A stretch of DNA of 62,509 nt, filler included, from Sandaracinaceae bacterium (lineage in GTDB: Bacteria; Myxococcota_A; Polyangia; Polyangiales; JADJQN01), in the NCBI GenBank assembly GCA_947483975.1. It is 9 parts of 9 records of this genome, joined end to end, with 100 filler letters (N's around TTAATTAATTAA, not from the genome) between each part and the next. Parts side by side here need not be neighbours in the genome. Positions count along the whole stretch, not along the records: positions 21,255 to 28,142 come from CANKOL010000287.1; 8 more parts are not named here. One strand, 5' to 3'. Each line of letters opens with the position of its first letter. Position 1 is the stretch's first letter. Shown piece by piece: positions 6,227-28,142 of the stretch. The position numbers and the translations under genes were made by a program. The notes beneath the pieces were generated by a model. It did no database searches. It was not told the DNA's origin and saw nothing but the letters and a program-made list of their open reading frames with translations.

Positions 6227-7024
6227 AGCTCGTACGCGAGCCCGAGCCAAAGCCTGAAGAGCGCGCCCGTGCCGAAGCGGTCGGCGCGCGCGAGGCCGTA
6301 GCCGCCCTCGACCAAGGCGAAGACCATCGTGTCGCCCGAGACGAGCACCTCCGCTGCGGCCGTCGCGTACGCCTCGCCGAACGCCTCGACGCGCTCGCCC
6401 GCGACGTCGCTGAGGCCGCCTCCGACGAGCGCGCCGATGGTCAGCGTCGCCTCCTCAGAGGCCCGCCCCCCGAGGAGCACGCCCGCGTCGAGCCGCGCGC
6501 CCCAGCCGAACTCGTTGGCCCGCGGGCCCTCTTCGCCGACGAGCACGGCCTGCCCGAACGTGAACCCAGGGCGCAGCGCGAGGGCGAGCGCGAGCCCGCC
6601 GCGCTCGTGCACCCGGTAGCGCACCGGCAGCTGCACATCGCCGCCGATGCCGCCGCTGATCCCCATCAGGGGCGAGCCGTAGTTGACCGCGACGCGCGCC
6701 CCCACGTTGAGGCGGGCGCTCGGCGCGAGCGCGAGCTCCACGAAGAGCCCGGGCCAGCCGACCCCCGCCGCCATCGCCGAGTGCCCCGCCTCGAGCGTGC
6801 GTCCGCTCCAGAGCGAGGTCAGCCCCGAGGTCGGCCGCAGGGGCGGCTCCGCGTCCTCGTCGTCGGTCAGCGCCGCTGTGCTGTCATCGGTCGCGCCTTC
6901 GTCTGTCGCGCCGCCCTCTGTCGCGCGTTCGCCGGTCGCGCCCTCGCCCGCTGCGTCTTGGGCGAGCGCGCGCGGCGCCCCGAGCCCCGCGAACAGCGCG
7001 GCGGCGAACAGCGCGGCGGCGAAC
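6223..7024 (-). CDS. Hypothetical outer-membrane beta-barrel-like protein, 5' truncated by contig end
   Basis: Frame appears open toward the contig edge, with signal-peptide-like segment, Asp/Thr-rich linker and amphipathic strands ending LWLGLAYEL. Confidence 0.55.
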
Positions 7025-7124
7025 NNNNNNNNNNNNNNNNNNNNNNNNNNNNNNNNNNNNNNNNNNNNTTAATTAATTAANNNNNNNNNNNNNNNNNNNN
7101 NNNNNNNNNNNNNNNNNNNNNNNN
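7025..7124. other. Artificial contig linker N44-TTAATTAATTAA-N44 (also at 14107-14206, 21155-21254, 28143-28242, 35063-35162, 41952-42051, 48834-48933, 55678-55777)
   Basis: Identical 100-nt spacer with stops in all six frames; flanking contigs decrease monotonically in length (7024, 6982, 6948, 6888, 6820, 6789, 6782, 6744, 6732). Confidence 0.98.
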
Positions 7125-14046: not shown

Positions 14047-14206
14047 GCGCCCAAGCTAAGCCTCGCGCGGCCTGCGTCCAGGGGGGGCGGCGCTGTGACG
14101 CACCGANNNNNNNNNNNNNNNNNNNNNNNNNNNNNNNNNNNNNNNNNNNNTTAATTAATTAANNNNNNNNNNNNNNNNNNNNNNNNNNNNNNNNNNNNNN
14201 NNNNNN

Positions 14207-21154: not shown

Positions 21155-21254
21155 NNNNNNNNNNNNNNNNNNNNNNNNNNNNNNNNNNNNNNNNNNNNTT
21201 AATTAATTAANNNNNNNNNNNNNNNNNNNNNNNNNNNNNNNNNNNNNNNNNNNN

Positions 21255-21896
21255 CGCCGCGCGCGCACGGCCCTCTCCGACGCCGCGCGCGGCCGCCTCG
21301 CCGACATCGCCGCGCTCCTCGGCGACCCCGGCGTCGCCGTCGCCTTCGGTGGTCGGGACCGCGCCGCCGATCGCCCGCGCGCCTACGAAGACGCCGTCGT
21401 CGCGGCCGCCGCGCAGCAGGGCCTCGACCCCGCGCTCCTCTTCGCGGTGATGCGCGTCGAGAGCGTCTACAACCGCCGCATCGTCTCGTACGCGGGCGCG
21501 ATCGGCCTCTTGCAGATCATGCCGCGCACCGGGCAGCTGGTCGCCGAGAGCATGGGCCGCGACGACTTCACCGCCGCCGATCTGCTCGACCCCGAGAAGA
21601 ACCTCGAGATGGCCGCATGGTACCTCGCGTCGCTGCTGCGCCGCTTCGACGGCCGCCTAGCGCTCGCGGTCGCCGCCTATAACGGCGGCCCCCACAACGT
21701 GCGCAAGTGGATGGAGGGCTACGAGCCCACGATGCCGCTCGACGCCTTCCTCGAGCGCATCCCCTTCGACCAGACCTTCCGCTACGTCCGCCGAGTCCTC
21801 GGCCACTACGCCGCCTATCGCGCGCAAACGGGCGAGTCGATGGTCCCGCTCGACGTGACCCTGCCGGGCGCTGCGACGGACACGGTGGCGTTCTGA
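21255..21896 (+). CDS. Lytic transglycosylase (SLT domain), 5' truncated
   Basis: AVMRVES (catalytic Glu), GAIGLLQIMP, AAYNGGPHNV, ERIPFDQTFRYVRRV. Confidence 0.93.
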   Translation, partial: RRARTALSDAARGRLADIAALLGDPGVAVAFGGRDRAADRPRAYEDAVVAAAAQQGLDPALLFAVMRVESVYNRRIVSYAGAIGLLQIMPRTGQLVAESMGRDDFTAADLLDPEKNLEMAAWYLASLLRRFDGRLALAVAAYNGGPHNVRKWMEGYEPTMPLDAFLERIPFDQTFRYVRRVLGHYAAYRAQTGESMVPLDVTLPGAATDTVAF

Positions 21897-21899
21897 GTT
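21831..21899 (+). repeat. Direct repeat copy A: 3' end of SLT gene
   Basis: Aligns without gaps to 23112-23180; both end LDVTLPGAATDTVAF-TGA-GTT. Confidence 0.92.
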
Positions 21900-21943
21900 T
21901 CTGAGTGGATGGGCGATGGAGGACCCGATAGGGTCGCGGGGTC

Positions 21944-22477
21944 ATGCGCTCTCACATCTCTCGTGTTTTCCTGGTGGTAGTGCCGGCGTTGACCGTCATG
22001 GGATGCGGTGTCGCCGGCGCGGCGCATACCGTTCGGGTGCGCTACGCCGCCGAATACGGCTGTGCAGAGTCCTCCGTGACCATCGCGAGCCTCGCCGGAA
22101 ACGCGTATCGAGCGCGCGGCTGCGGTCCTGACGTCAGCTATGTCTGCGACGTGAAGGCCTTCGATAGCGATAGGACGTGCATCGCCGACAGCGTGCAGCG
22201 CCCCGCCGCCGCAGTCCCCAACGCCGCCATCGTCCCGCCCGCTGCCGACAACGCCCCCTTGCGCGCCTGGCTCGACACCCAGCGCGACGCGATCCTCACC
22301 TGCACCGCGCGCACCACCGTCGCCGTCACCGCCCGCTGGGACGCGACTGGCAACGTGACCCTCGCCCTCGGCGGCGACCTCGCTGGCACCCCGGCCGAAG
22401 GCTGCGTGCGCAGCGCCGTCGGCGCGCAGCACGTCCCCGCGGGCGCCGCGGGTGAAGTGCTGCATCTCGTGCGCTGA
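21944..22477 (+). CDS. Lipoprotein with Cys-containing N-domain and AgmX/PglI (TonB-C-like) C-domain
   Basis: Lipobox VMGC; last 74 aa are 61/74 identical to the C-terminus of 23216-24064. Confidence 0.75.
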   Translation: MRSHISRVFLVVVPALTVMGCGVAGAAHTVRVRYAAEYGCAESSVTIASLAGNAYRARGCGPDVSYVCDVKAFDSDRTCIADSVQRPAAAVPNAAIVPPAADNAPLRAWLDTQRDAILTCTARTTVAVTARWDATGNVTLALGGDLAGTPAEGCVRSAVGAQHVPAGAAGEVLHLVR

Positions 22478-22550
22478 CGCCGCCTCGAGCTCGCCGCGTG
22501 GCGGCGACATCTCCTGCGCTGACGAGCCGACAAGGGCGCGCGGAGGCGTG

Positions 22551-22817
22551 ATGACCGGTCGGCAACGCTACAGTGACTACATCGTCTACGTCGACGAGGC
22601 GGGAGACCACGGGCCGGCGACGCCGGAGTTTCCGGTCTTCGTGCTCGCGTTTTGTTTGTTCCAGAAGCTCGAGTACGCAGACGTCGTGGCCCGCCCCATC
22701 GGCTTGACGGTCGTGCGACCCGGCCAGCCCAACCGTGCGTTCGACCTCCTCTCGGCGAAGCTCCGCAGGTCGCCGGCCGGAGTCCTCACGGGGTGGGCTA
22801 TCCAGCGCCTCCCCTGA
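22551..22817 (+). pseudogene. DUF3800 family (RNase H-like) gene with large in-frame internal deletion
   Basis: GGAGG RBS; YIVYVDEAGDH...FPVFVLAFCLF N-terminal motif joined directly to the C-terminal ADVVARPIG...PNRAFD motif; only 88 aa. Confidence 0.75.
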
Positions 22818-22939
22818 AGAGCTGTCGAAAAATGCCCGATAGCGGCTTACGTCCTCACGCAGACCCTGCGAAATACGGGAGTATTCCTCGGGTCTGCGCT
22901 CCGGGCGCGCTCGCTCTCGGACTATTTTTCTACAGCTCT
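22818..22939. mobile_element. 122-bp MITE-like element flanked by TGA direct repeats
   Basis: Left end AGAGCTGTCGAAAAAT vs reverse complement of right end AGAGCTGTAGAAAAAT (15/16); TGA at 22815-17 and 22940-42; internal hairpin CGCAGACCC/GGGTCTGCG capped by AATAC-GGGA-GTATT. Confidence 0.8.
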
Positions 22940-22949
22940 TGAGCGCCGC

Positions 22950-23010
22950 AAAAAAACAAAACGCCCCGGTCTTCACCGAGGCGCGTTGCCGACCGAGCAT
23001 TCCCAGTCCG
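22950..23010 (-). ncRNA. Candidate DUF3800-associated small structured RNA, convergent with the DUF3800 gene
   Basis: Minus strand folds GACUGGG-AAUG-CUCGGUC and CGCCUCGGU-GAAG-ACCGGGGCG, followed by a U-rich tail; the G-U pairs work only on this strand; TTGACG at 23045-23040 upstream. Confidence 0.6.
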
Positions 23011-23111
23011 TGCTCAGAAGTGGCCCAGAAGACGCACCCCGTCAACCTGCTCGACCGCGCCCCTGCCCCACCGAGCCCGCCTCGCGCGACGCAGCCCACC
23101 GAGCCCACCTC

Positions 23112-23180
23112 GGAGAGCCGATGATGCGCCTCGACGTCACGCTCCCTGGCGCAGCGACGGACACGGTGGCCTTCTGAGTT
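23112..23180 (+). repeat. Direct repeat copy B: orphan 3' tip of an SLT allele
   Basis: GEPMMRLDVTLPGAATDTVAF*; the six differences from copy A in the last 15 codons are all synonymous third-position changes. Confidence 0.92.
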
Positions 23181-23215
23181 GAGGCCCAGCCCGCGCTCCT
23201 GTAGCGTCGCGCGCC

Positions 23216-24064
23216 ATGGAATACGCGACCTCGACGCGCCTTGCGGTTGTCTGTGGAGTAGCGTGCATCTGGTTGTCTGGCTGCGCGTCTCTCGCCAAGG
23301 CCAGCGCCGGGCAGGTGGGTTGCTCCCCGGACGACGTCACCATCGTCGACGACAGCGGCTACTTCAGCTTCGGCGGCCGCTCGTGGGTCGCCGTCTGCCA
23401 CGGTCGCCGCCACCAGTGCTCGGCGATCTCGACGGGTCGTGACAGCTCGCAGATCAACTGCACTGCGGAAGAGGGCGGCACGGCCGGTGGAGAGAGTCCC
23501 TCTGGAGACCGATCGGGAGCGCCACCCCAAGCGAGCGAACCCCGACGCGCAGAGGTCACTGCGACGTTCGCCCCGGCGACGAGCGCGGTCCTCGCGTGCT
23601 TCCCCGGCGCGTCGTCAGTCGAGTTCGACGTGAGCGTCGGGCCCGCGGGCGACATCTACGACTTCCGCACGGCTCGACCGCTCACGGCCGGCGAGCAGCA
23701 GTGCCTCCGGCAGGTGTTCGGGCAAGGCCACGCCCCGCCCGGGCCGTCCGCTGTCGGTCTGCGCCTGCGCTTCCCCGACGAGCAGCCGAGCGCTGCGCCC
23801 GTCGAGTCGAGCCCGCCCGTCGCCTCCCCCGACACGACCGCGCCCCTCCGCGCCTCGCTCGACGCCCAGCGCGACGCGATCCTCGCCTGCGCCGAGCGCC
23901 CGACGGTCGTCGTCACCGCCCGCTGGGACGCGACCGGCACCGTGACCATCGCGCTCGGCGGCGACCTCGCCAACACGCCAGCCGAAGGCTGCGTGCGCAG
24001 CGCCGTCGGCGCGCAACACGTCCCCGCAGGCGCCGCAGGCGAAGCGCGCCACTTCGTGCGCTGA
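23216..24064 (+). CDS. Lipoprotein with Cys-containing N-domain and two AgmX/PglI-like domains
   Basis: Lipobox LSGC; internal AVLAC...QCLRQV domain plus C-terminal domain shared with 21944-22477. Confidence 0.8.
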   Translation: MEYATSTRLAVVCGVACIWLSGCASLAKASAGQVGCSPDDVTIVDDSGYFSFGGRSWVAVCHGRRHQCSAISTGRDSSQINCTAEEGGTAGGESPSGDRSGAPPQASEPRRAEVTATFAPATSAVLACFPGASSVEFDVSVGPAGDIYDFRTARPLTAGEQQCLRQVFGQGHAPPGPSAVGLRLRFPDEQPSAAPVESSPPVASPDTTAPLRASLDAQRDAILACAERPTVVVTARWDATGTVTIALGGDLANTPAEGCVRSAVGAQHVPAGAAGEARHFVR

Positions 24065-24252
24065 CCCAGTTCTTCTCTCATCCCAAGCCGATCGAGCGCC
24101 ACGCGAGCCAAGGCACGCAAGCCCTCCGACGGGAGCGAAACCCCACCTCTTACGCGACCGCCCGAGCCCGCAGCCCTCCGCCCGCCGCCGCCGGCCATGT
24201 GCGGCGGCCGCGCCAGCGCTCAGCTCCACCCGACACGCCTCTGCGACGGTGG

Positions 24253-24300
24253 GCCCTTCCCCGAAACTCCCGCCCCCGAGGGGGCGGGCTGGGGTGGGGG
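24253..24300. repeat. REP-like GC-rich palindrome
   Basis: cccgcccc-cgag-ggggcggg hairpin inside cccttcccc...ctggggtggggg, between convergent genes. Confidence 0.4.
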
Positions 24301-24373
24301 CGCCCCGCCCGAGCAATCGGGCAAAAAAGGCGCAAACCGCCGCTAATTCCTCCCAAAGAAGCGAGCCTCGACC

Positions 24374-25705
24374 TCAAGAAGTCACAGTAGACGCAGGAAT
24401 CCCGCCCCCCCGCCGCAGCGCCCGACAAGGCACCAGCCGCAGCACGACGCCCCGCGCCTCATCCTGCGCCCGCCCCTCGATCGGCCCCGCGCGCAGCGTG
24501 ATCGTCCGCGTCACGTCAGGACACACCGCGCGCTTCAGCCGCACAGTCCACTGCGTCCCAGGCCCCCAGCCGAGCCCGTGCCCCTCGAAGCGGAACGCCC
24601 CGTTCGCGTCGGTGATGACCGTCTCACCGTCGTAGTTCGCCGTCGCCAGGCGCTCGACCAGCACGCCCGCGATCGGGTGATTGTCCGGGCCGACGACGCG
24701 CCCCTCGACCAGATAGCCAAACGCCGGATCAGCGATGGCGATGCGGTGCTGCGCGCTGCCCGACGTCGGCGCGAACGTCACCGCCAGCAGCAGCGCGCTC
24801 GCGAGGGCTGCGACGATGGGGCGGGACGGCGCCCGCGCGACGAGCACCCCGCCGCTCAGCACGAGCACACCACCGACGAGCGCGAGGGCATCCAGCTGCT
24901 CATGCCAGAACAGCCAGCCGATGGCCACCGCGACGAGCGGCTCGAGGTAGGCGAGCACGCTCGCGCGCGCGGCGCCGATCACGCGCAGCCCCGACACGAA
25001 CACGATGCCCGCGAGGGAGCCCGGCACGAGCGCGCCGAGCGCCAGCAGCCCGACGGCGAAGGGCGTGACGTGCACCTCCCCGCGCACCAGCAGCAGCAGC
25101 GGCGCGAGCAGCGCGGCGGCGAAGAGGCTGTGATAGGCCTGCGCGCGCGGGGCGCCGATGCGCTCGGCCAGGCGGCGAATCACGAACACATTGCCCGCGT
25201 AGGCGAACGCGCTGACCGTGCCGAGCCCCGCGCCGATCAGCAGGTCGGGGTCGAGCGTCGCGCTGCGCCACGGCGCGAGCACGAGCGTCAGCCCAGTGAC
25301 GGCGAGGAGCGCCGCGGGGAGCGCGACGGCGACGCGCTGCTTGTCGACGTAGGGGGCGAGCAGCGCGACGAGCACGGGCGCGAGGTAGTGCGTGAGCACG
25401 GCGACGGCGACGGTGGTGCGCGACATCGCGAGGAAGAAGCCCGCGAGGTTCACGGCGTCGAGCAGCGTGTTGGCCGCGAGCAGCTGATAGGTGCGCTTGT
25501 CCCAGCGCGCCTCCATCGGGAACACGCGAATGAGCGGCAGCGTGAAGACGCCGATCAGCAGCATCACGACGGGCGCCGTCACCTCGCCGGGCAGCCCGCC
25601 CGGGCGGAGGAAAAGGCTCCAGGTGCCCCAGCTACCCGCGGCGAGCGCGACCTTGAGCAGCCCAGCGACTGTGCCGGGCTGCGGGCGTGTCGCCTCGCGC
25701 GTCAC
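24374..25705 (-). CDS. EamA/DMT transporter fused to a carboxypeptidase-regulatory-like beta-sandwich domain
   Basis: About ten TM helices with AVLTHYLAPVLV and ASVLAYLEPLVA, then a signal-like helix and VEGRVVGPDNHPIAGVLV...TDANGAFRF. Confidence 0.8.
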   Translation of the reverse strand: MTREATRPQPGTVAGLLKVALAAGSWGTWSLFLRPGGLPGEVTAPVVMLLIGVFTLPLIRVFPMEARWDKRTYQLLAANTLLDAVNLAGFFLAMSRTTVAVAVLTHYLAPVLVALLAPYVDKQRVAVALPAALLAVTGLTLVLAPWRSATLDPDLLIGAGLGTVSAFAYAGNVFVIRRLAERIGAPRAQAYHSLFAAALLAPLLLLVRGEVHVTPFAVGLLALGALVPGSLAGIVFVSGLRVIGAARASVLAYLEPLVAVAIGWLFWHEQLDALALVGGVLVLSGGVLVARAPSRPIVAALASALLLAVTFAPTSGSAQHRIAIADPAFGYLVEGRVVGPDNHPIAGVLVERLATANYDGETVITDANGAFRFEGHGLGWGPGTQWTVRLKRAVCPDVTRTITLRAGPIEGRAQDEARGVVLRLVPCRALRRGGGIPASTVTS

Positions 25706-26892
25706 GGGGTCGGGCGCACCGCGGTCTCCCCGCGCTCGCGCGTCGGGTGCGCCTCGGGTTCGGCGTGCTCGCGACCGGCGCCGTGCTCCCCGGGGCGCGC
25801 CTCGGCGTGCTCCCCCGCGGGCTCTGCGGCGTGCTCGCGACCCGCGCGGCGCTCGCTGACCTCCGCGGCGGCGTGCTGCGGAGTCTGCGCCGTGATGTGC
25901 GAGAGGCCGCTGGCGCCCATCGTCGGCGGGCCCGCCGCGAGGATGTCGGCGACGAGCTGAAAGCTGTGGCGATAGAGGCCTGTGTGCAGGCGCGCGAGGA
26001 AGTCGGGCATATCCTCGACGACGTAGTGCCAGTCGCGGGGACCGGGCTTGACCAGGCGGCGATGATTCACCGTGCGCACGACGATCGAGCGGTCGTCGGT
26101 GGGCAGGTTGTCGACGTTGTGGATGAACGCGTCCGAGTACGGGAAGAACTGCTCGGCGTTCGAGAAATACAGGACGCGCACGGTCTCACCCGCGCGCTTC
26201 GCGACGTCGCCCACGGCGCGCAGCGTGCGCTCGGCGGTGACGTCGCCGTTGAACGTCTGAATGCGCCGCGCGCGATGGAGCGCGCGAATCCGCGCGTACA
26301 TCGCCGCGTCGCCGATCCACGCGACGGCGACGCCGTCGTGCCGCGCGCGCACCATGCGGCGCAGGTACCGCTCGAACCACGCGTGCTGACGGTGGTAGTA
26401 GGCGACGACCTCGTCCTTGCGCGGGTCGTCCGCGAGCTCCGTCGCGATGATGCGCTCGCTCTCGGCGGTGGCCTCCGGCGCGAAGTGCGCGATCAGCGCG
26501 TCGGGCGTCTCCGAGACGGAGATCAGCGCGCGATACATCCGGTGCACGAGCGGGATCTGCGGGTCGTAGTCGACGAGCAAGACGAGGTCGGAGCCCGCCG
26601 CCGCGGCCATCGTGTAGTTCTGATCGGAGCCGACGCCGACGTACGCGCCGCCGAGGCCGTGCAAGAACGGGAAGAGCAGATCGTGCCGCCACTCGTTGCT
26701 CACGGGGAAGTGCCGCGCGGGTCGCGGCGTGCCCTCGTCGGGGATCGTCGCGAGGTCGCGCTGGATGTCCGCGGGCAGCGCGACGGACGGATCCGCGGGG
26801 ACGCGCGACTGCGCGTGCAGGAGCGGCGCGGTGCAGAGGACCGCGAGCGCGGCGGTGAGCGAGAGCGTGAGTCGGACGTTCGTCGGGGTCAT
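25702..26892 (-). CDS. Secreted hypothetical protein (LIC_10091-like, SNE...YVGVGSDQNY motif) with C-terminal EH repeats
   Basis: Signal peptide, HFPVSNE, GGAYVGVGSDQNYT, LYFSNAEQF; tail GREHAAEPAGEHAEARPGEHGAGREHAEPE. Confidence 0.65.
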   Translation of the reverse strand: MTPTNVRLTLSLTAALAVLCTAPLLHAQSRVPADPSVALPADIQRDLATIPDEGTPRPARHFPVSNEWRHDLLFPFLHGLGGAYVGVGSDQNYTMAAAAGSDLVLLVDYDPQIPLVHRMYRALISVSETPDALIAHFAPEATAESERIIATELADDPRKDEVVAYYHRQHAWFERYLRRMVRARHDGVAVAWIGDAAMYARIRALHRARRIQTFNGDVTAERTLRAVGDVAKRAGETVRVLYFSNAEQFFPYSDAFIHNVDNLPTDDRSIVVRTVNHRRLVKPGPRDWHYVVEDMPDFLARLHTGLYRHSFQLVADILAAGPPTMGASGLSHITAQTPQHAAAEVSERRAGREHAAEPAGEHAEARPGEHGAGREHAEPEAHPTRERGETAVRPTP

Positions 26893-26960
26893 CGGGGGCG
26901 CGAGGATACAGGCGCGGTGCGCGGCACGCTATCCGGGGGGCGAGTCGCGCGTCGATGGAC

Positions 26961-28142
26961 TCAGGGAGGCGCGACAGGCTGCGCGGCGGACGGCGCGGCG
27001 GGCTGTGTGGCTGGCTGTGTGGCCGGGCCGGGGAACGGAGCCGAGGCCTGCCCCGACCCGCGCATCGAGCGCACGACCATGTCGAACTTCGAGGCGGGGT
27101 TCCAGAACAGGAAGCCATCGGCGCCCGCTCGCCGAGCGGCGCGGATCTGCCCGGCGATGAAGCGCTCGTCGAAGCGCTCCGCGCCCGTCGCGAACGCCTG
27201 CAAAAACGGGCGAATTACGGGCGCTGGGCCGACTCGCGCGCGCAGGCTCTGCGTCGCGGCGGAGACGAACGACGCGCCGCGGTCGACGTCCCCGCCGGCC
27301 TCCCAGGTGAGGAAGTTGTTGGCGTAGAGCATCGGCGTGTAGACCTCGACGTACGGGGCCCACTCCTCCGCCGACTGACCGAGCCCGGCGGTGTCCCCGA
27401 CGCGCAGCGCGCTGATGCCGAAGAGGTCGACACCGAGCGGCACCTGCACCGCCTCGTCGACCAGGCGCAGCATCGCCACGAGGTACTCCCAGTGCCGCGC
27501 GCCCGCGCGCTCGCGCGGAAAGACCGCGTAGTCAGTGCCGCGGTCGACCGGGAAGCGCACGTAGTCGAGCTGCACCTCGTCGAAGCCGAAGGCGGCGACC
27601 TCCACGGCGAGGTCGCGCACGAGCGCGTGATTGTCTGGGTTCGTCGGGTCGAGCCAGGTCGTGCCGGTGCCCCACGACACCCACGGTCGGCGCGCGCGGC
27701 CGGGCCTGCGGTCGAGGACGGCGCGGTCGAGGTGCGCGAGCGGCACGACGGAGTCGTTGAAGCAGACGAGGCGCGCGATGGTGTAGACGCCCTCGGACTT
27801 CAGGCGGGTGACGAGCGCGCGCACGTCCCCGAGCATCGGCACGCGCGACGCGGCGAGGACCGGCACCTGCGAGTCGAAGAGCACGCGCCCTTGGTCGTCC
27901 TTGAGGTCGATCACGGCGGCGTCGAGGTTCGCGCGGCGGAGCGCCCGCACCACGCCCTCGGCGCCGAAGCGCTTGACGTAGGGCCCCGAGAAGTAGAGCC
28001 CGCGCGCCGCCCGCCCCTGGGCCGAGACGGGGTCTTCGAGCGAAGGGGGCGGAGGCGCCGGCGCGGGCGCAGCGTCGAGCGGAGGCGAGACGGTCGGCGG
28101 CGCAGGCGCGTCGAGAGGCGCGCGAGGCGGGTGGGCTGGAGC
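26961..28142 (-). CDS. Putative glycoside hydrolase (DUF4015-like), 5' truncated
   Basis: ARGLYFS, AVIDLKDDQG, YTIARLVCFND, WLDP, GFDEVQLDYVRFP, PMLY, RPFLQAF, FLFWNP. Confidence 0.85.
   Translation of the reverse strand, partial: APAHPPRAPLDAPAPPTVSPPLDAAPAPAPPPPSLEDPVSAQGRAARGLYFSGPYVKRFGAEGVVRALRRANLDAAVIDLKDDQGRVLFDSQVPVLAASRVPMLGDVRALVTRLKSEGVYTIARLVCFNDSVVPLAHLDRAVLDRRPGRARRPWVSWGTGTTWLDPTNPDNHALVRDLAVEVAAFGFDEVQLDYVRFPVDRGTDYAVFPRERAGARHWEYLVAMLRLVDEAVQVPLGVDLFGISALRVGDTAGLGQSAEEWAPYVEVYTPMLYANNFLTWEAGGDVDRGASFVSAATQSLRARVGPAPVIRPFLQAFATGAERFDERFIAGQIRAARRAGADGFLFWNPASKFDMVVRSMRGSGQASAPFPGPATQPATQPAAPSAAQPVAPP

Follow-up and report, generated by a model that had tools for sequence, protein, structure and literature searches.

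The 3' end of a gene for an Slt70-like lytic transglycosylase (SLT) occurs twice, 1281 nt apart, in a metagenome-assembled genome (MAG) of a Sandaracinaceae bacterium (GCA_947483975.1; genome G000), and each copy is followed by a gene for a predicted lipoprotein, termed lipoA and lipoB, respectively. The window examined here is a stretch of 62,509 nucleotides, in which the locus lies on contig C287 (CANKOL010000287.1; 6888 bp, window positions 21255-28142) between the SLT gene and a gene for an EamA transporter. We conclude, with moderate confidence, that a divergent unit was stacked at the 3' end of the SLT gene by homology-anchored recombination and that units are gained or lost by recombination between one another. 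The locus looks like the product of ordinary recombination, not like a new kind of mobile element.

A Repeated Unit behind the SLT Gene

A repeat search aligned positions 21808-21899 with 23089-23180 without gaps (92 nt, 77% identity, spacing 1281). The two copies of the gene end within this repeat, tip 1 and tip 2 (Table 1), are 82-87% identical, contain no insertions or deletions and share a longest identical block of 17 nt. Over the last 15 sense codons (LDVTLPGAATDTVAF), the tips differ at six sites, all of them silent third-position changes; both encode the same last 15 residues, and in both the TGA stop codon is followed by GTT. Analysis by the method of Nei and Gojobori over these codons gave a proportion of synonymous differences (pS) of 0.46 (6 of 13.2 sites) and a nonsynonymous divergence (dN) of 0. 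Differences at codon positions 1/2/3 numbered 2/1/9 over 22 codons and 5/2/15 over 29 codons. When the 212-aa SLT fragment was compared with C287 by tblastn, residues 185-212 alone matched at tip 2. The left edge of tip 2 is sharp, at 23112-23125, and its right edge falls directly after the stop codon. An earlier, sequence-only reading of this DNA had described an ungapped tip repeat at a spacing of 1281, six silent third-position differences with a shared TGA-GTT end and a second tip devoid of gene body; the repeat search, codon table and tblastn result, respectively, bear out all three. The duplication of the lipoprotein gene, a miniature inverted-repeat transposable element (MITE) and a DUF3800 gene remnant between the units, and the composition of the window from nine contigs had escaped that reading.

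The tip forms the left edge of a repeated unit that consists of the SLT 3' tip, a short spacer and a Cys-rich lipoprotein gene. The spacers (47 and 38 nt) share a motif just before the start codon and show weak homology on alignment. Given that the tip repeat and the repeat encoding the lipoprotein C-domain are in register, they define a larger repeated unit in a head-to-tail arrangement. LipoA lacks the middle domain of lipoB, and the Cys-rich N-domains of the two proteins are two variants of one domain that are unalignable at the DNA level. The regions encoding the C-domains have a synonymous divergence (dS) of 0.29 (15 of 62 sites) and a dN of 0.10. The C-domain of lipoA is 89% identical to that of P0002, an 80% relative of lipoB encoded on a 157-kb contig, and 82% identical to that of lipoB. 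Since the lipoA C-domain is thus closer to P0002 than to lipoB, the units are probably not recent in-situ copies of one another. In a tree of the 72-aa C-domains, 8 of 11 inner branches remained open, and its row for P0009, which was cut at the wrong place, should be disregarded. A 97% variant of lipoA, P0010, was seen in five contigs.

Two further members of the family, P0003 (305 aa, lipoB-type) and P0013 (a 116-aa open reading frame (ORF) with the C-domain only), share a 6347-nt contig of another organism, which hints at a second lineage in which two members of the family are neighbors.

Variation in Natural Populations

The locus or part of it is contained in 20 lake or freshwater metagenome runs from ten studies. 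Four of these (X5, X6, X10 and X13) were aligned to the locus, using contigs only and a likeness of 88; parts without contig cover, such as 21915-22178 in X13, were not counted as evidence. Strain divergence in these alignments amounted to 1-3% other letters.

A single 4808-nt contig of X10, from another study, runs from SLT through tip 1 into the start of lipoA and, after ~1.3 kb of unaligned sequence, passes from 22484 to 23125 and on through tip 2 into lipoB. This is a two-unit form that lacks the DUF3800/MITE filler, and its unit junction joins a point 7 nt after the lipoA stop codon to one 52 nt before the SLT stop codon. Contig 9 of X13 (depth 128) is likewise a two-unit form, with the lipoA end, 497 other letters and then the sequence from 23125 onward. 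Thus, homology resumes at 23125 in the two-unit joints of both runs, and 23125-23180 is kept before lipoB in every two-unit variant.

Contig 8 of X13 (depth 61.5; 16 other letters in 645, 97.5% identical) follows SLT to 21899, has 8 other letters and resumes at 23189 for 53 nt. It represents a one-unit haplotype that is, with the 8 replaced letters counted, a net 1281 nt shorter, which is exactly one period of the repeat, a difference of one whole unit as in a tandem array of variable copy number. Given that contigs 8 and 9 differ at 23224, two haplotypes are present in X13. The aligner kept contig 8 on tip 1, and its tip is therefore no closer to tip 2 than to tip 1. On C287, 8 bases around the SLT stop codon (21894-21907) are duplicated in tandem, apparently by slippage, and the one-unit haplotype of X13 appears to be without this repeat.

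Contigs of X6, from a third study, tile the C287 arrangement at 97-99% identity, and one of them skips 22813-22937, an allele without the MITE. X5 contains identical pieces across the junctions of lipoA with the filler and of the filler with tip 2 and lipoB. Taken together, the contigs of X10, X13, X6 and X5 show intraspecific variation in the number of units, in the filler and in the presence of the MITE.

The SLT-EamA Interval in Relatives

The comparison set comprised 25 other SLT-ortholog loci with a readable tail, namely 20 of the 21 loci L032-L052 (L045, in which the tail is cut, was left out), L030 and L031 from same-family genomes, and the metagenome loci L053, L056 and L057. A metagenome scan with alignment A3 yielded 10 loci; one with lipoB alone gave no match. 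The SLT tail, LP-x4-D-x2-[AG]F-stop, is conserved in 25 of 25 orthologs, and the succession of tip, cargo and tip was found in none of the 25 loci.

In L057 (SLT in the 83-86% class) the gene order is ProS, SLT, one lipoB-type gene, EamA (- strand) and DUF7790 (- strand), with a single tip. The same order was observed in the parts covered of L053 and L056 (SLT 83-86% identical), each with one tip and one lipoprotein. One lipoB-type unit is therefore the usual content of this interval in the nearest relatives. In G002, of the same family, the interval is empty, the convergent SLT and EamA genes overlapping by 16 nt; in G003 an unrelated 351-aa lipoprotein is encoded there on the other strand. 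Given these differing contents (nothing in G002, another lipoprotein in G003, one unit in L057 and two units in G000), the SLT-EamA interval is a variable slot. The sequence-only reading had proposed counting tips and cassettes in this interval among relatives, with a fixed two-gene arrangement in all of them as the outcome that would speak against it; the number varies.

G001, a genome of the same genus that is 94% complete, has EamA directly behind proS, ~320 nt away (L029, G001:C16, 5522-8805). An SLT ortholog was not found at this proS-EamA position, and the best SLT matches elsewhere in G001 (45-48%) are probably paralogues. Neither lipoA nor lipoB was found in G001-G003 (94, 94 and 90% complete, respectively) with the query used. 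In L059-L061, genes resembling lipoA (43% identity) occur at another locus, downstream of an MFS-porin gene.

A second tip copy was present in 1 of the 25 other SLT loci. In L033, from a Polyangiales-type MAG, ~100 nt of the SLT end are copied in tandem 22 nt after the stop codon, with no cargo (6538-6744). The copy is decayed: it aligns in two segments (35 nt, 97%; 22 nt, 91%) and has suffered a deletion of 27 nt as well as a frameshift. L033 is without the lipoprotein and EamA genes, and a DUF7790 homolog is directly next. The left boundary of this copy lies ~100 nt before the stop codon, compared with ~52-69 nt at the C287 locus. Such a different boundary implies that the SLT end is a recurrent breakpoint and not a fixed site.

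Orphan Gene Tips at Other Loci of the MAG

In a scan of G000, 11 of 3998 long ORFs with high G + C content at third codon positions had their last 63 nt repeated within 5 kb downstream. Seven of the 11 read as internal or tandem paralogue repeats, of which only that on C431 was examined closely; C431 had the appearance of a tip-plus-gene duplication but was rejected, since the repeat lies inside a large gene on the minus strand that had been read on the wrong strand. The remaining four are orphan tips beyond an insert, so that the topology of a tip-flanked insert occurs at an SLT, a radical SAM/SPASM (C451), an RluA-type (C102) and an Lcl_C (C175) gene. The four inserts have neither sequence nor ends nor inverted repeats in common. 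Within the same distance of 5 kb, 578 local direct-repeat high-scoring pairs were counted in G000; tandem and local duplications are thus common in this genome.

On C451 (L063 92-298, 2241-2629), 95 nt of the 3' end of the radical SAM/SPASM gene are repeated with 100% identity beyond a 2054-nt insert that carries an HTH_3 gene together with small ORFs unassigned to any known family; beyond a gap of 182 nt, another 112 nt are repeated at 96%. On C102 (L064; contig positions 6997-7084, 9109-9196), the last 88 nt of the gene for an RluA-type pseudouridine synthase are repeated at 96.6% beyond a 2024-nt insert encoding a 639-aa Ser/Thr protein kinase. By our reading, its tip copies have two non-silent differences and one silent difference. 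Neither the kinase nor the next gene was found behind RluA orthologs in relatives within the 1.5 kb examined. On C175 (L065 2213-2268, 3974-4029), the last 56 nt of the Lcl_C-domain gene are repeated at 94.6% beyond a 1705-nt insert, and three of three differences fall, by our reading, at second codon positions. A BrnT/BrnA toxin-antitoxin pair lies just downstream of the C175 repeat.

Weight of the Silent-only Pattern

Under a flat null of one-third per codon position, the probability of six differences out of six at third positions is 0.0014, and that of at least nine out of 12 is 0.0039. A fairer null, in which one copy is selected and the orphan is neutral, has by our estimate an expected third-position share of ~0.49 and gives ~0.014 and ~0.06, respectively. 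When the six sites were polarized with L053, L056 and L057, approximately three changes were assigned by our reading to each lineage; for the tip 2 lineage alone, ~3 changes correspond to p ~ (1/3)^3 = 0.04. Tested against the appropriate null (p about 0.01-0.06), the pattern argues against neutral decay suggestively rather than decisively. The sequence-only reading had held that neutral decay would be unlikely to give only silent changes, and this argument keeps its direction and loses part of its stated force.

At third positions the tips are as divergent from each other (6 of 15) as each is from the orthologs of other species (6-7 of 15), which also differ from the tips at three first positions. 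The orphan tips at C175, C102 and L033 carry non-silent changes or indels. Given that silent-only divergence is atypical of orphan tips in G000, tip 2 probably diverged within a working SLT allele and, as far as these few sites go, probably spent most of its divergence time there. Moreover, the divergence between the units (tip pS 0.46, C-domain dS 0.29) is far larger than strain divergence, so that the tips most likely evolved in separate SLT alleles, as the sequence-only reading had proposed in speaking of functional alleles.

Origin of the Two-unit Arrangement

Given the divergence of the units, C-domains that appear not to be nearest relatives and the single unit of related loci, the stacking of a divergent unit is the simplest account. 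The ancestral slot would have held one unit of the lipoB type, and a second, already divergent unit (tip plus lipoA) would have been stacked at the SLT 3' end via SLT homology. Two routes may be envisaged. In one, homologous recombination on one side is combined with illegitimate joining inside the resident tip; in the other, a small circle carrying a short tip copy integrates by a single crossover. By both routes the SLT gene would stay intact and one tip would be left as an orphan at the junction. Subsequent recombination between the repeated tips and spacers could remove or add units, which fits the X13 haplotype with its difference of one period. The space between the units would then collect junk, such as the DUF3800 remnant, the MITE and slipped repeats. 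The anatomy, the single-unit relatives, the one- and two-unit haplotypes and the polymorphic filler and MITE are direct observations. We infer the direction of the event (gain or loss), the recombination route and the evolution of both tips inside working SLT alleles. To this extent, the proposal of the sequence-only reading that a segment was brought in by recombination at the SLT 3' end, restoring the gene, is right in describing a recombination-built, strain-variable stack anchored on the tip.

Several points weigh against stacking of a divergent unit. The one-unit haplotype could have arisen by deletion, and the two-unit form could represent a balanced polymorphism of long standing. No donor lineage, in which SLT is followed by a lipoA-type gene, was found. 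The silent-only pattern comprises six sites, and in other strains tip 2 has one silent change and one T>S change at 23163, a place that is occupied by serine in working SLT orthologs. The 8 letters at the X13 joint match neither C287 spacer exactly; by our comparison they are closer to spacer 1 (7/8) than to spacer 2. The tip letters of the one-unit contig of X13 were not displayed in the alignment. The joints were called at likeness 88, and those below 95 are less reliable; furthermore, contigs cannot reveal circles or rare forms.

A tentative second choice, of clearly lower probability, is plain in-situ tandem duplication of the SLT tip and lipoprotein gene, with the orphan drifting neutrally and the silent-only pattern due to luck. 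Local duplications are very common in the MAG, the X10 unit junction is what a tandem duplication leaves, and the silent pattern reaches only p ~0.014-0.06 against the proper null. The synonymous divergences of tip and C-domain (6 of 13.2 versus 15 of 62) are not clearly different. However, the lipoA and lipoB N-domains are unalignable in DNA, yet the non-coding tip has remained 82-87% identical without indels. The C-domains do not appear to be mutual closest relatives (82% versus 89%), although their tree is poorly resolved; relatives with SLT 83-86% identical have one unit, and the control orphan tips show non-silent changes or indels. In view of the four tip-flanked inserts of G000, it is also conceivable, if doubtful, that the lineage has a recombinase-free habit of adding cassettes behind stop codons via a 56-95-nt tip copy, perhaps as circles; either flanking tip would then be usable as the gene end after unit loss, and both would stay coding-competent.

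It is improbable that tip 2 has been kept through use, as a micro-ORF, in read-through from lipoA or as a promoter or leader of lipoB. Such use would suit a tip with no indels and silent changes only, a GGAGAG sequence on C287 located 6 nt ahead of the ATG of a 17-codon frame that runs through tip 2, and the retention of 23125-23180 before lipoB in every strain variant. However, in X10 and X13, with their joints at 23125, other sequence stands in place of the ATG and the stretch upstream of it, no promoter-like site was found in 21700-24200, the tip region had no Rfam match at E ≤ 1, and a DNA-level signal would not yield three-base periodicity. Slightly less probable again is a site-specific integrative cassette at the SLT 3' end, of the attL/attR or integron type. 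Direct repeats do flank a 1.2-kb insert right behind the stop codon, both ending in TGA-GTT; an empty-site-like haplotype exists in X13, L053, L056 and L057 have a single tip, and the same topology recurs at three other MAG loci. Against this, there is no recombinase gene on the 6.9-kb C287, and a search of G000 with TIGR02249 gave 0 matches over the cut-off, with control genomes responding equally. DNA folds of both tips on both strands were no better than those of shuffled sequences (z -0.16 to +1.3), the identical core is just 17 nt, the L033 boundary differs and the four inserts share no ends. An assembly chimera of two strains' alleles, the concern raised by the sequence-only reading, might be expected of a fragmented MAG from samples holding several strains, and its probability is negligible. 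With no identical stretch longer than 17 bases, the tips offer too little for k-mer collapse, the single 4808-nt contig of X10 spans both tips, and contigs of X6 and X5 tile the same junctions. Together, these independent contigs rule out a chimera.

Source DNA and Other Features

The window consists of nine contigs of one MAG in falling length order, joined by N runs around a six-frame stop linker. Linkers lie at 7025-7124, 14107-14206 and 21155-21254, with five more, and contigs across a linker are not to be read as genome neighbors; the large Met-zincin gene to the left of the locus is part of an unrelated contig. The MAG comprises 5.29 Mb in 524 contigs and is 81% complete. The genes on C287, identified from ORFs and Pfam matches, are the SLT 3' part, the two lipoprotein genes, the DUF3800 remnant and the genes for EamA, DUF7790 (an LIC_10091-like lipoprotein) and DUF4015. 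A recombinase or integrase gene was not found among the ORFs and Pfam matches of this short, 6.9-kb contig, and a distant gene is possible. The statement of the sequence-only reading that the contig holds no integrase is thus correct for C287 and reaches no further than these 6.9 kb. Feature coordinates are given in Table 1.

Table 1. Features of the SLT-EamA locus on C287, in window positions
Feature	Position	Strand	Description
SLT 3' part	21255..21896	+	Slt70-like lytic transglycosylase, 212 codons + stop; Pfam SLT, E 1.3e-29
Tip 1	21831..21899	+	Last 22 SLT codons, stop codon and GTT
Spacer 1	21900..21943	+	Starts with 8-nt slip duplication of the stop region
lipoA	21944..22477	+	177-aa predicted lipoprotein; Cys-rich N-domain and conserved C-domain
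C-domain coding repeat	22231..22478 (versus 23818-24065)	+	248 nt, 84%, spacing 1587
Repeat of lipoA end	22459..22525	+	Final 17 nt of lipoA with its stop codon, and a copy 46 nt downstream (16/17 identical); slippage-prone
DUF3800 gene remnant	22551..22817	+	N-terminal ~24 profile positions; Pfam E 0.0025, below cut-off
MITE-like element	22813..22944		125-131 nt, ~20-nt terminal inverted repeats
Terminator-like hairpin	22961..22984	-	With T run; 1 found versus 1.0 expected in shuffles; weak
Tip 2	23112..23180	+	Orphan SLT tip copy, no gene body upstream
Spacer 2	23181..23215	+	
lipoB	23216..24064	+	282-aa predicted three-domain lipoprotein; type found singly behind SLT in relatives
EamA transporter gene	24374..25705	-	Convergent; conserved right flank of the variable interval; Pfam EamA, E 1.2e-18

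The SLT gene is cut on its 5' side by the contig end. The part present also matches the NCBIfam profile PRK11619 and BB0259-type profiles, both below cut-off, and full-length orthologs of 786-985 aa adjoin proS in L030, L031 and L057. Synteny of the EamA gene was seen in G002, G003, L053, L054, L056 and L057. The EamA ORF has a C-terminal extension of ~130 aa (24374-24776, - strand) with a CarboxypepD_reg-like match (E 1.9e-6, below cut-off). This extension is present in L053; the G002 and L057 orthologs are without it, save for a 25-aa trace in L057.

No Pfam or NCBIfam family matched lipoA or lipoB. The model of lipoB (mean predicted local distance difference test score 75.7) contains a small beta domain and two alpha-beta-beta-alpha-beta domains, and a fold search with it gave no match at E ≤ 0.001. 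The only structural neighbors were weak TolA/TonB C-terminal rows (E 0.03-0.3), so that a TolA/TonB-like C terminus of the modeled lipoB is a lead, not a result.

Within the filler, the slippage-prone end of lipoA varies between strains: X10 steps back 45 at 22498>22454, and X13 has a 26-nt insertion behind 22480. The DUF3800 remnant belongs to the strain-specific filler that is missing from the X10 contig. Eight full-length copies of the MITE, including this one, are present in the MAG at 95-100% identity, together with several partial copies; contigs C410, C374, C83, C10, C159, C145, C66 and others of G000 carry copies. In lake metagenomes, summed contig depth over the MITE is 30-100x that of its flanks.

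Significance and Comparison with Known Systems

In uncultured lake Sandaracinaceae, a conserved cell-wall gene can thus anchor a strain-variable slot for envelope lipoproteins, and the junctions of such recombination events can be marked by an orphan tip. The locus provides a small natural example of gene gain and loss without mobility genes that is traceable in public metagenomes. If the four tip-flanked inserts share one process, searches for recent insertions in MAGs could make good use of such tips.

The sequence-only reading had likened the locus to polymorphic toxin loci. In orphan rhs-CT/rhsI and cdiA-CT/cdiI modules, a shared stretch allows recombination to swap or delete units, and the orphan tip homology described for Salmonella is 522 bp at 95% (PMC3967940). 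The likeness is one of topology only, in that a displaced 3' fragment with a small downstream gene lies behind the full gene. By contrast, the SLT tail is conserved and has no toxin domain, and the orphan spans 17-22 codons and not hundreds of bases. The analogy fails, since SLT is a housekeeping-type, Slt70-like gene adjoining proS whose tail is conserved and not variable. Each tip is followed by a lipoprotein paralogue.

The likeness to attL/attR islands, also drawn by the sequence-only reading, is that a direct repeat of a gene 3' end flanks an insert while the gene stays intact. In such islands, unlike here, the repeats are about 100% identical (82% at the SLT locus) and have a conserved core, and an integrase is to be expected where C287 has none; moreover, the cargo at the SLT locus is a paralogue of the resident downstream gene. 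With no hairpin beyond shuffles, a 17-nt identical block and another boundary in L033, this analogy fails as well. An integron cassette array was rejected on the grounds of no IntI (TIGR02249) over cut-off in the MAG and no attC-like fold. The dedicated cassette system implied by the sequence-only reading is accordingly not borne out, with neither a recombinase on C287 nor an att- or attC-like structure.

In homology-facilitated illegitimate recombination and in Campbell-type integration, one homologous anchor brings in foreign DNA, and an insert that enters by a single crossover on short homology ends up between direct repeats that consist of precisely the shared stretch. Of the features of these events, neither a donor nor a circle nor junction microhomology was demonstrated at the SLT locus.

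The closest likeness is to the minimal mobile elements of Neisseria, which were reportedly introduced by Saunders and Snyder in 2002. These are alternative small gene sets that lie between conserved genes and have no mobility genes (PMC1797815). They hold one- to three-gene contents, and their exchange is presumed to proceed by homologous recombination in the flanks. The SLT-EamA slot resembles them in its alternative contents and in having no mobility genes. Transformation is not known for this lineage. Unlike minimal mobile elements, the SLT unit overlaps the left flank gene, leaves a duplicated tip of 56-69 nt and can stack.

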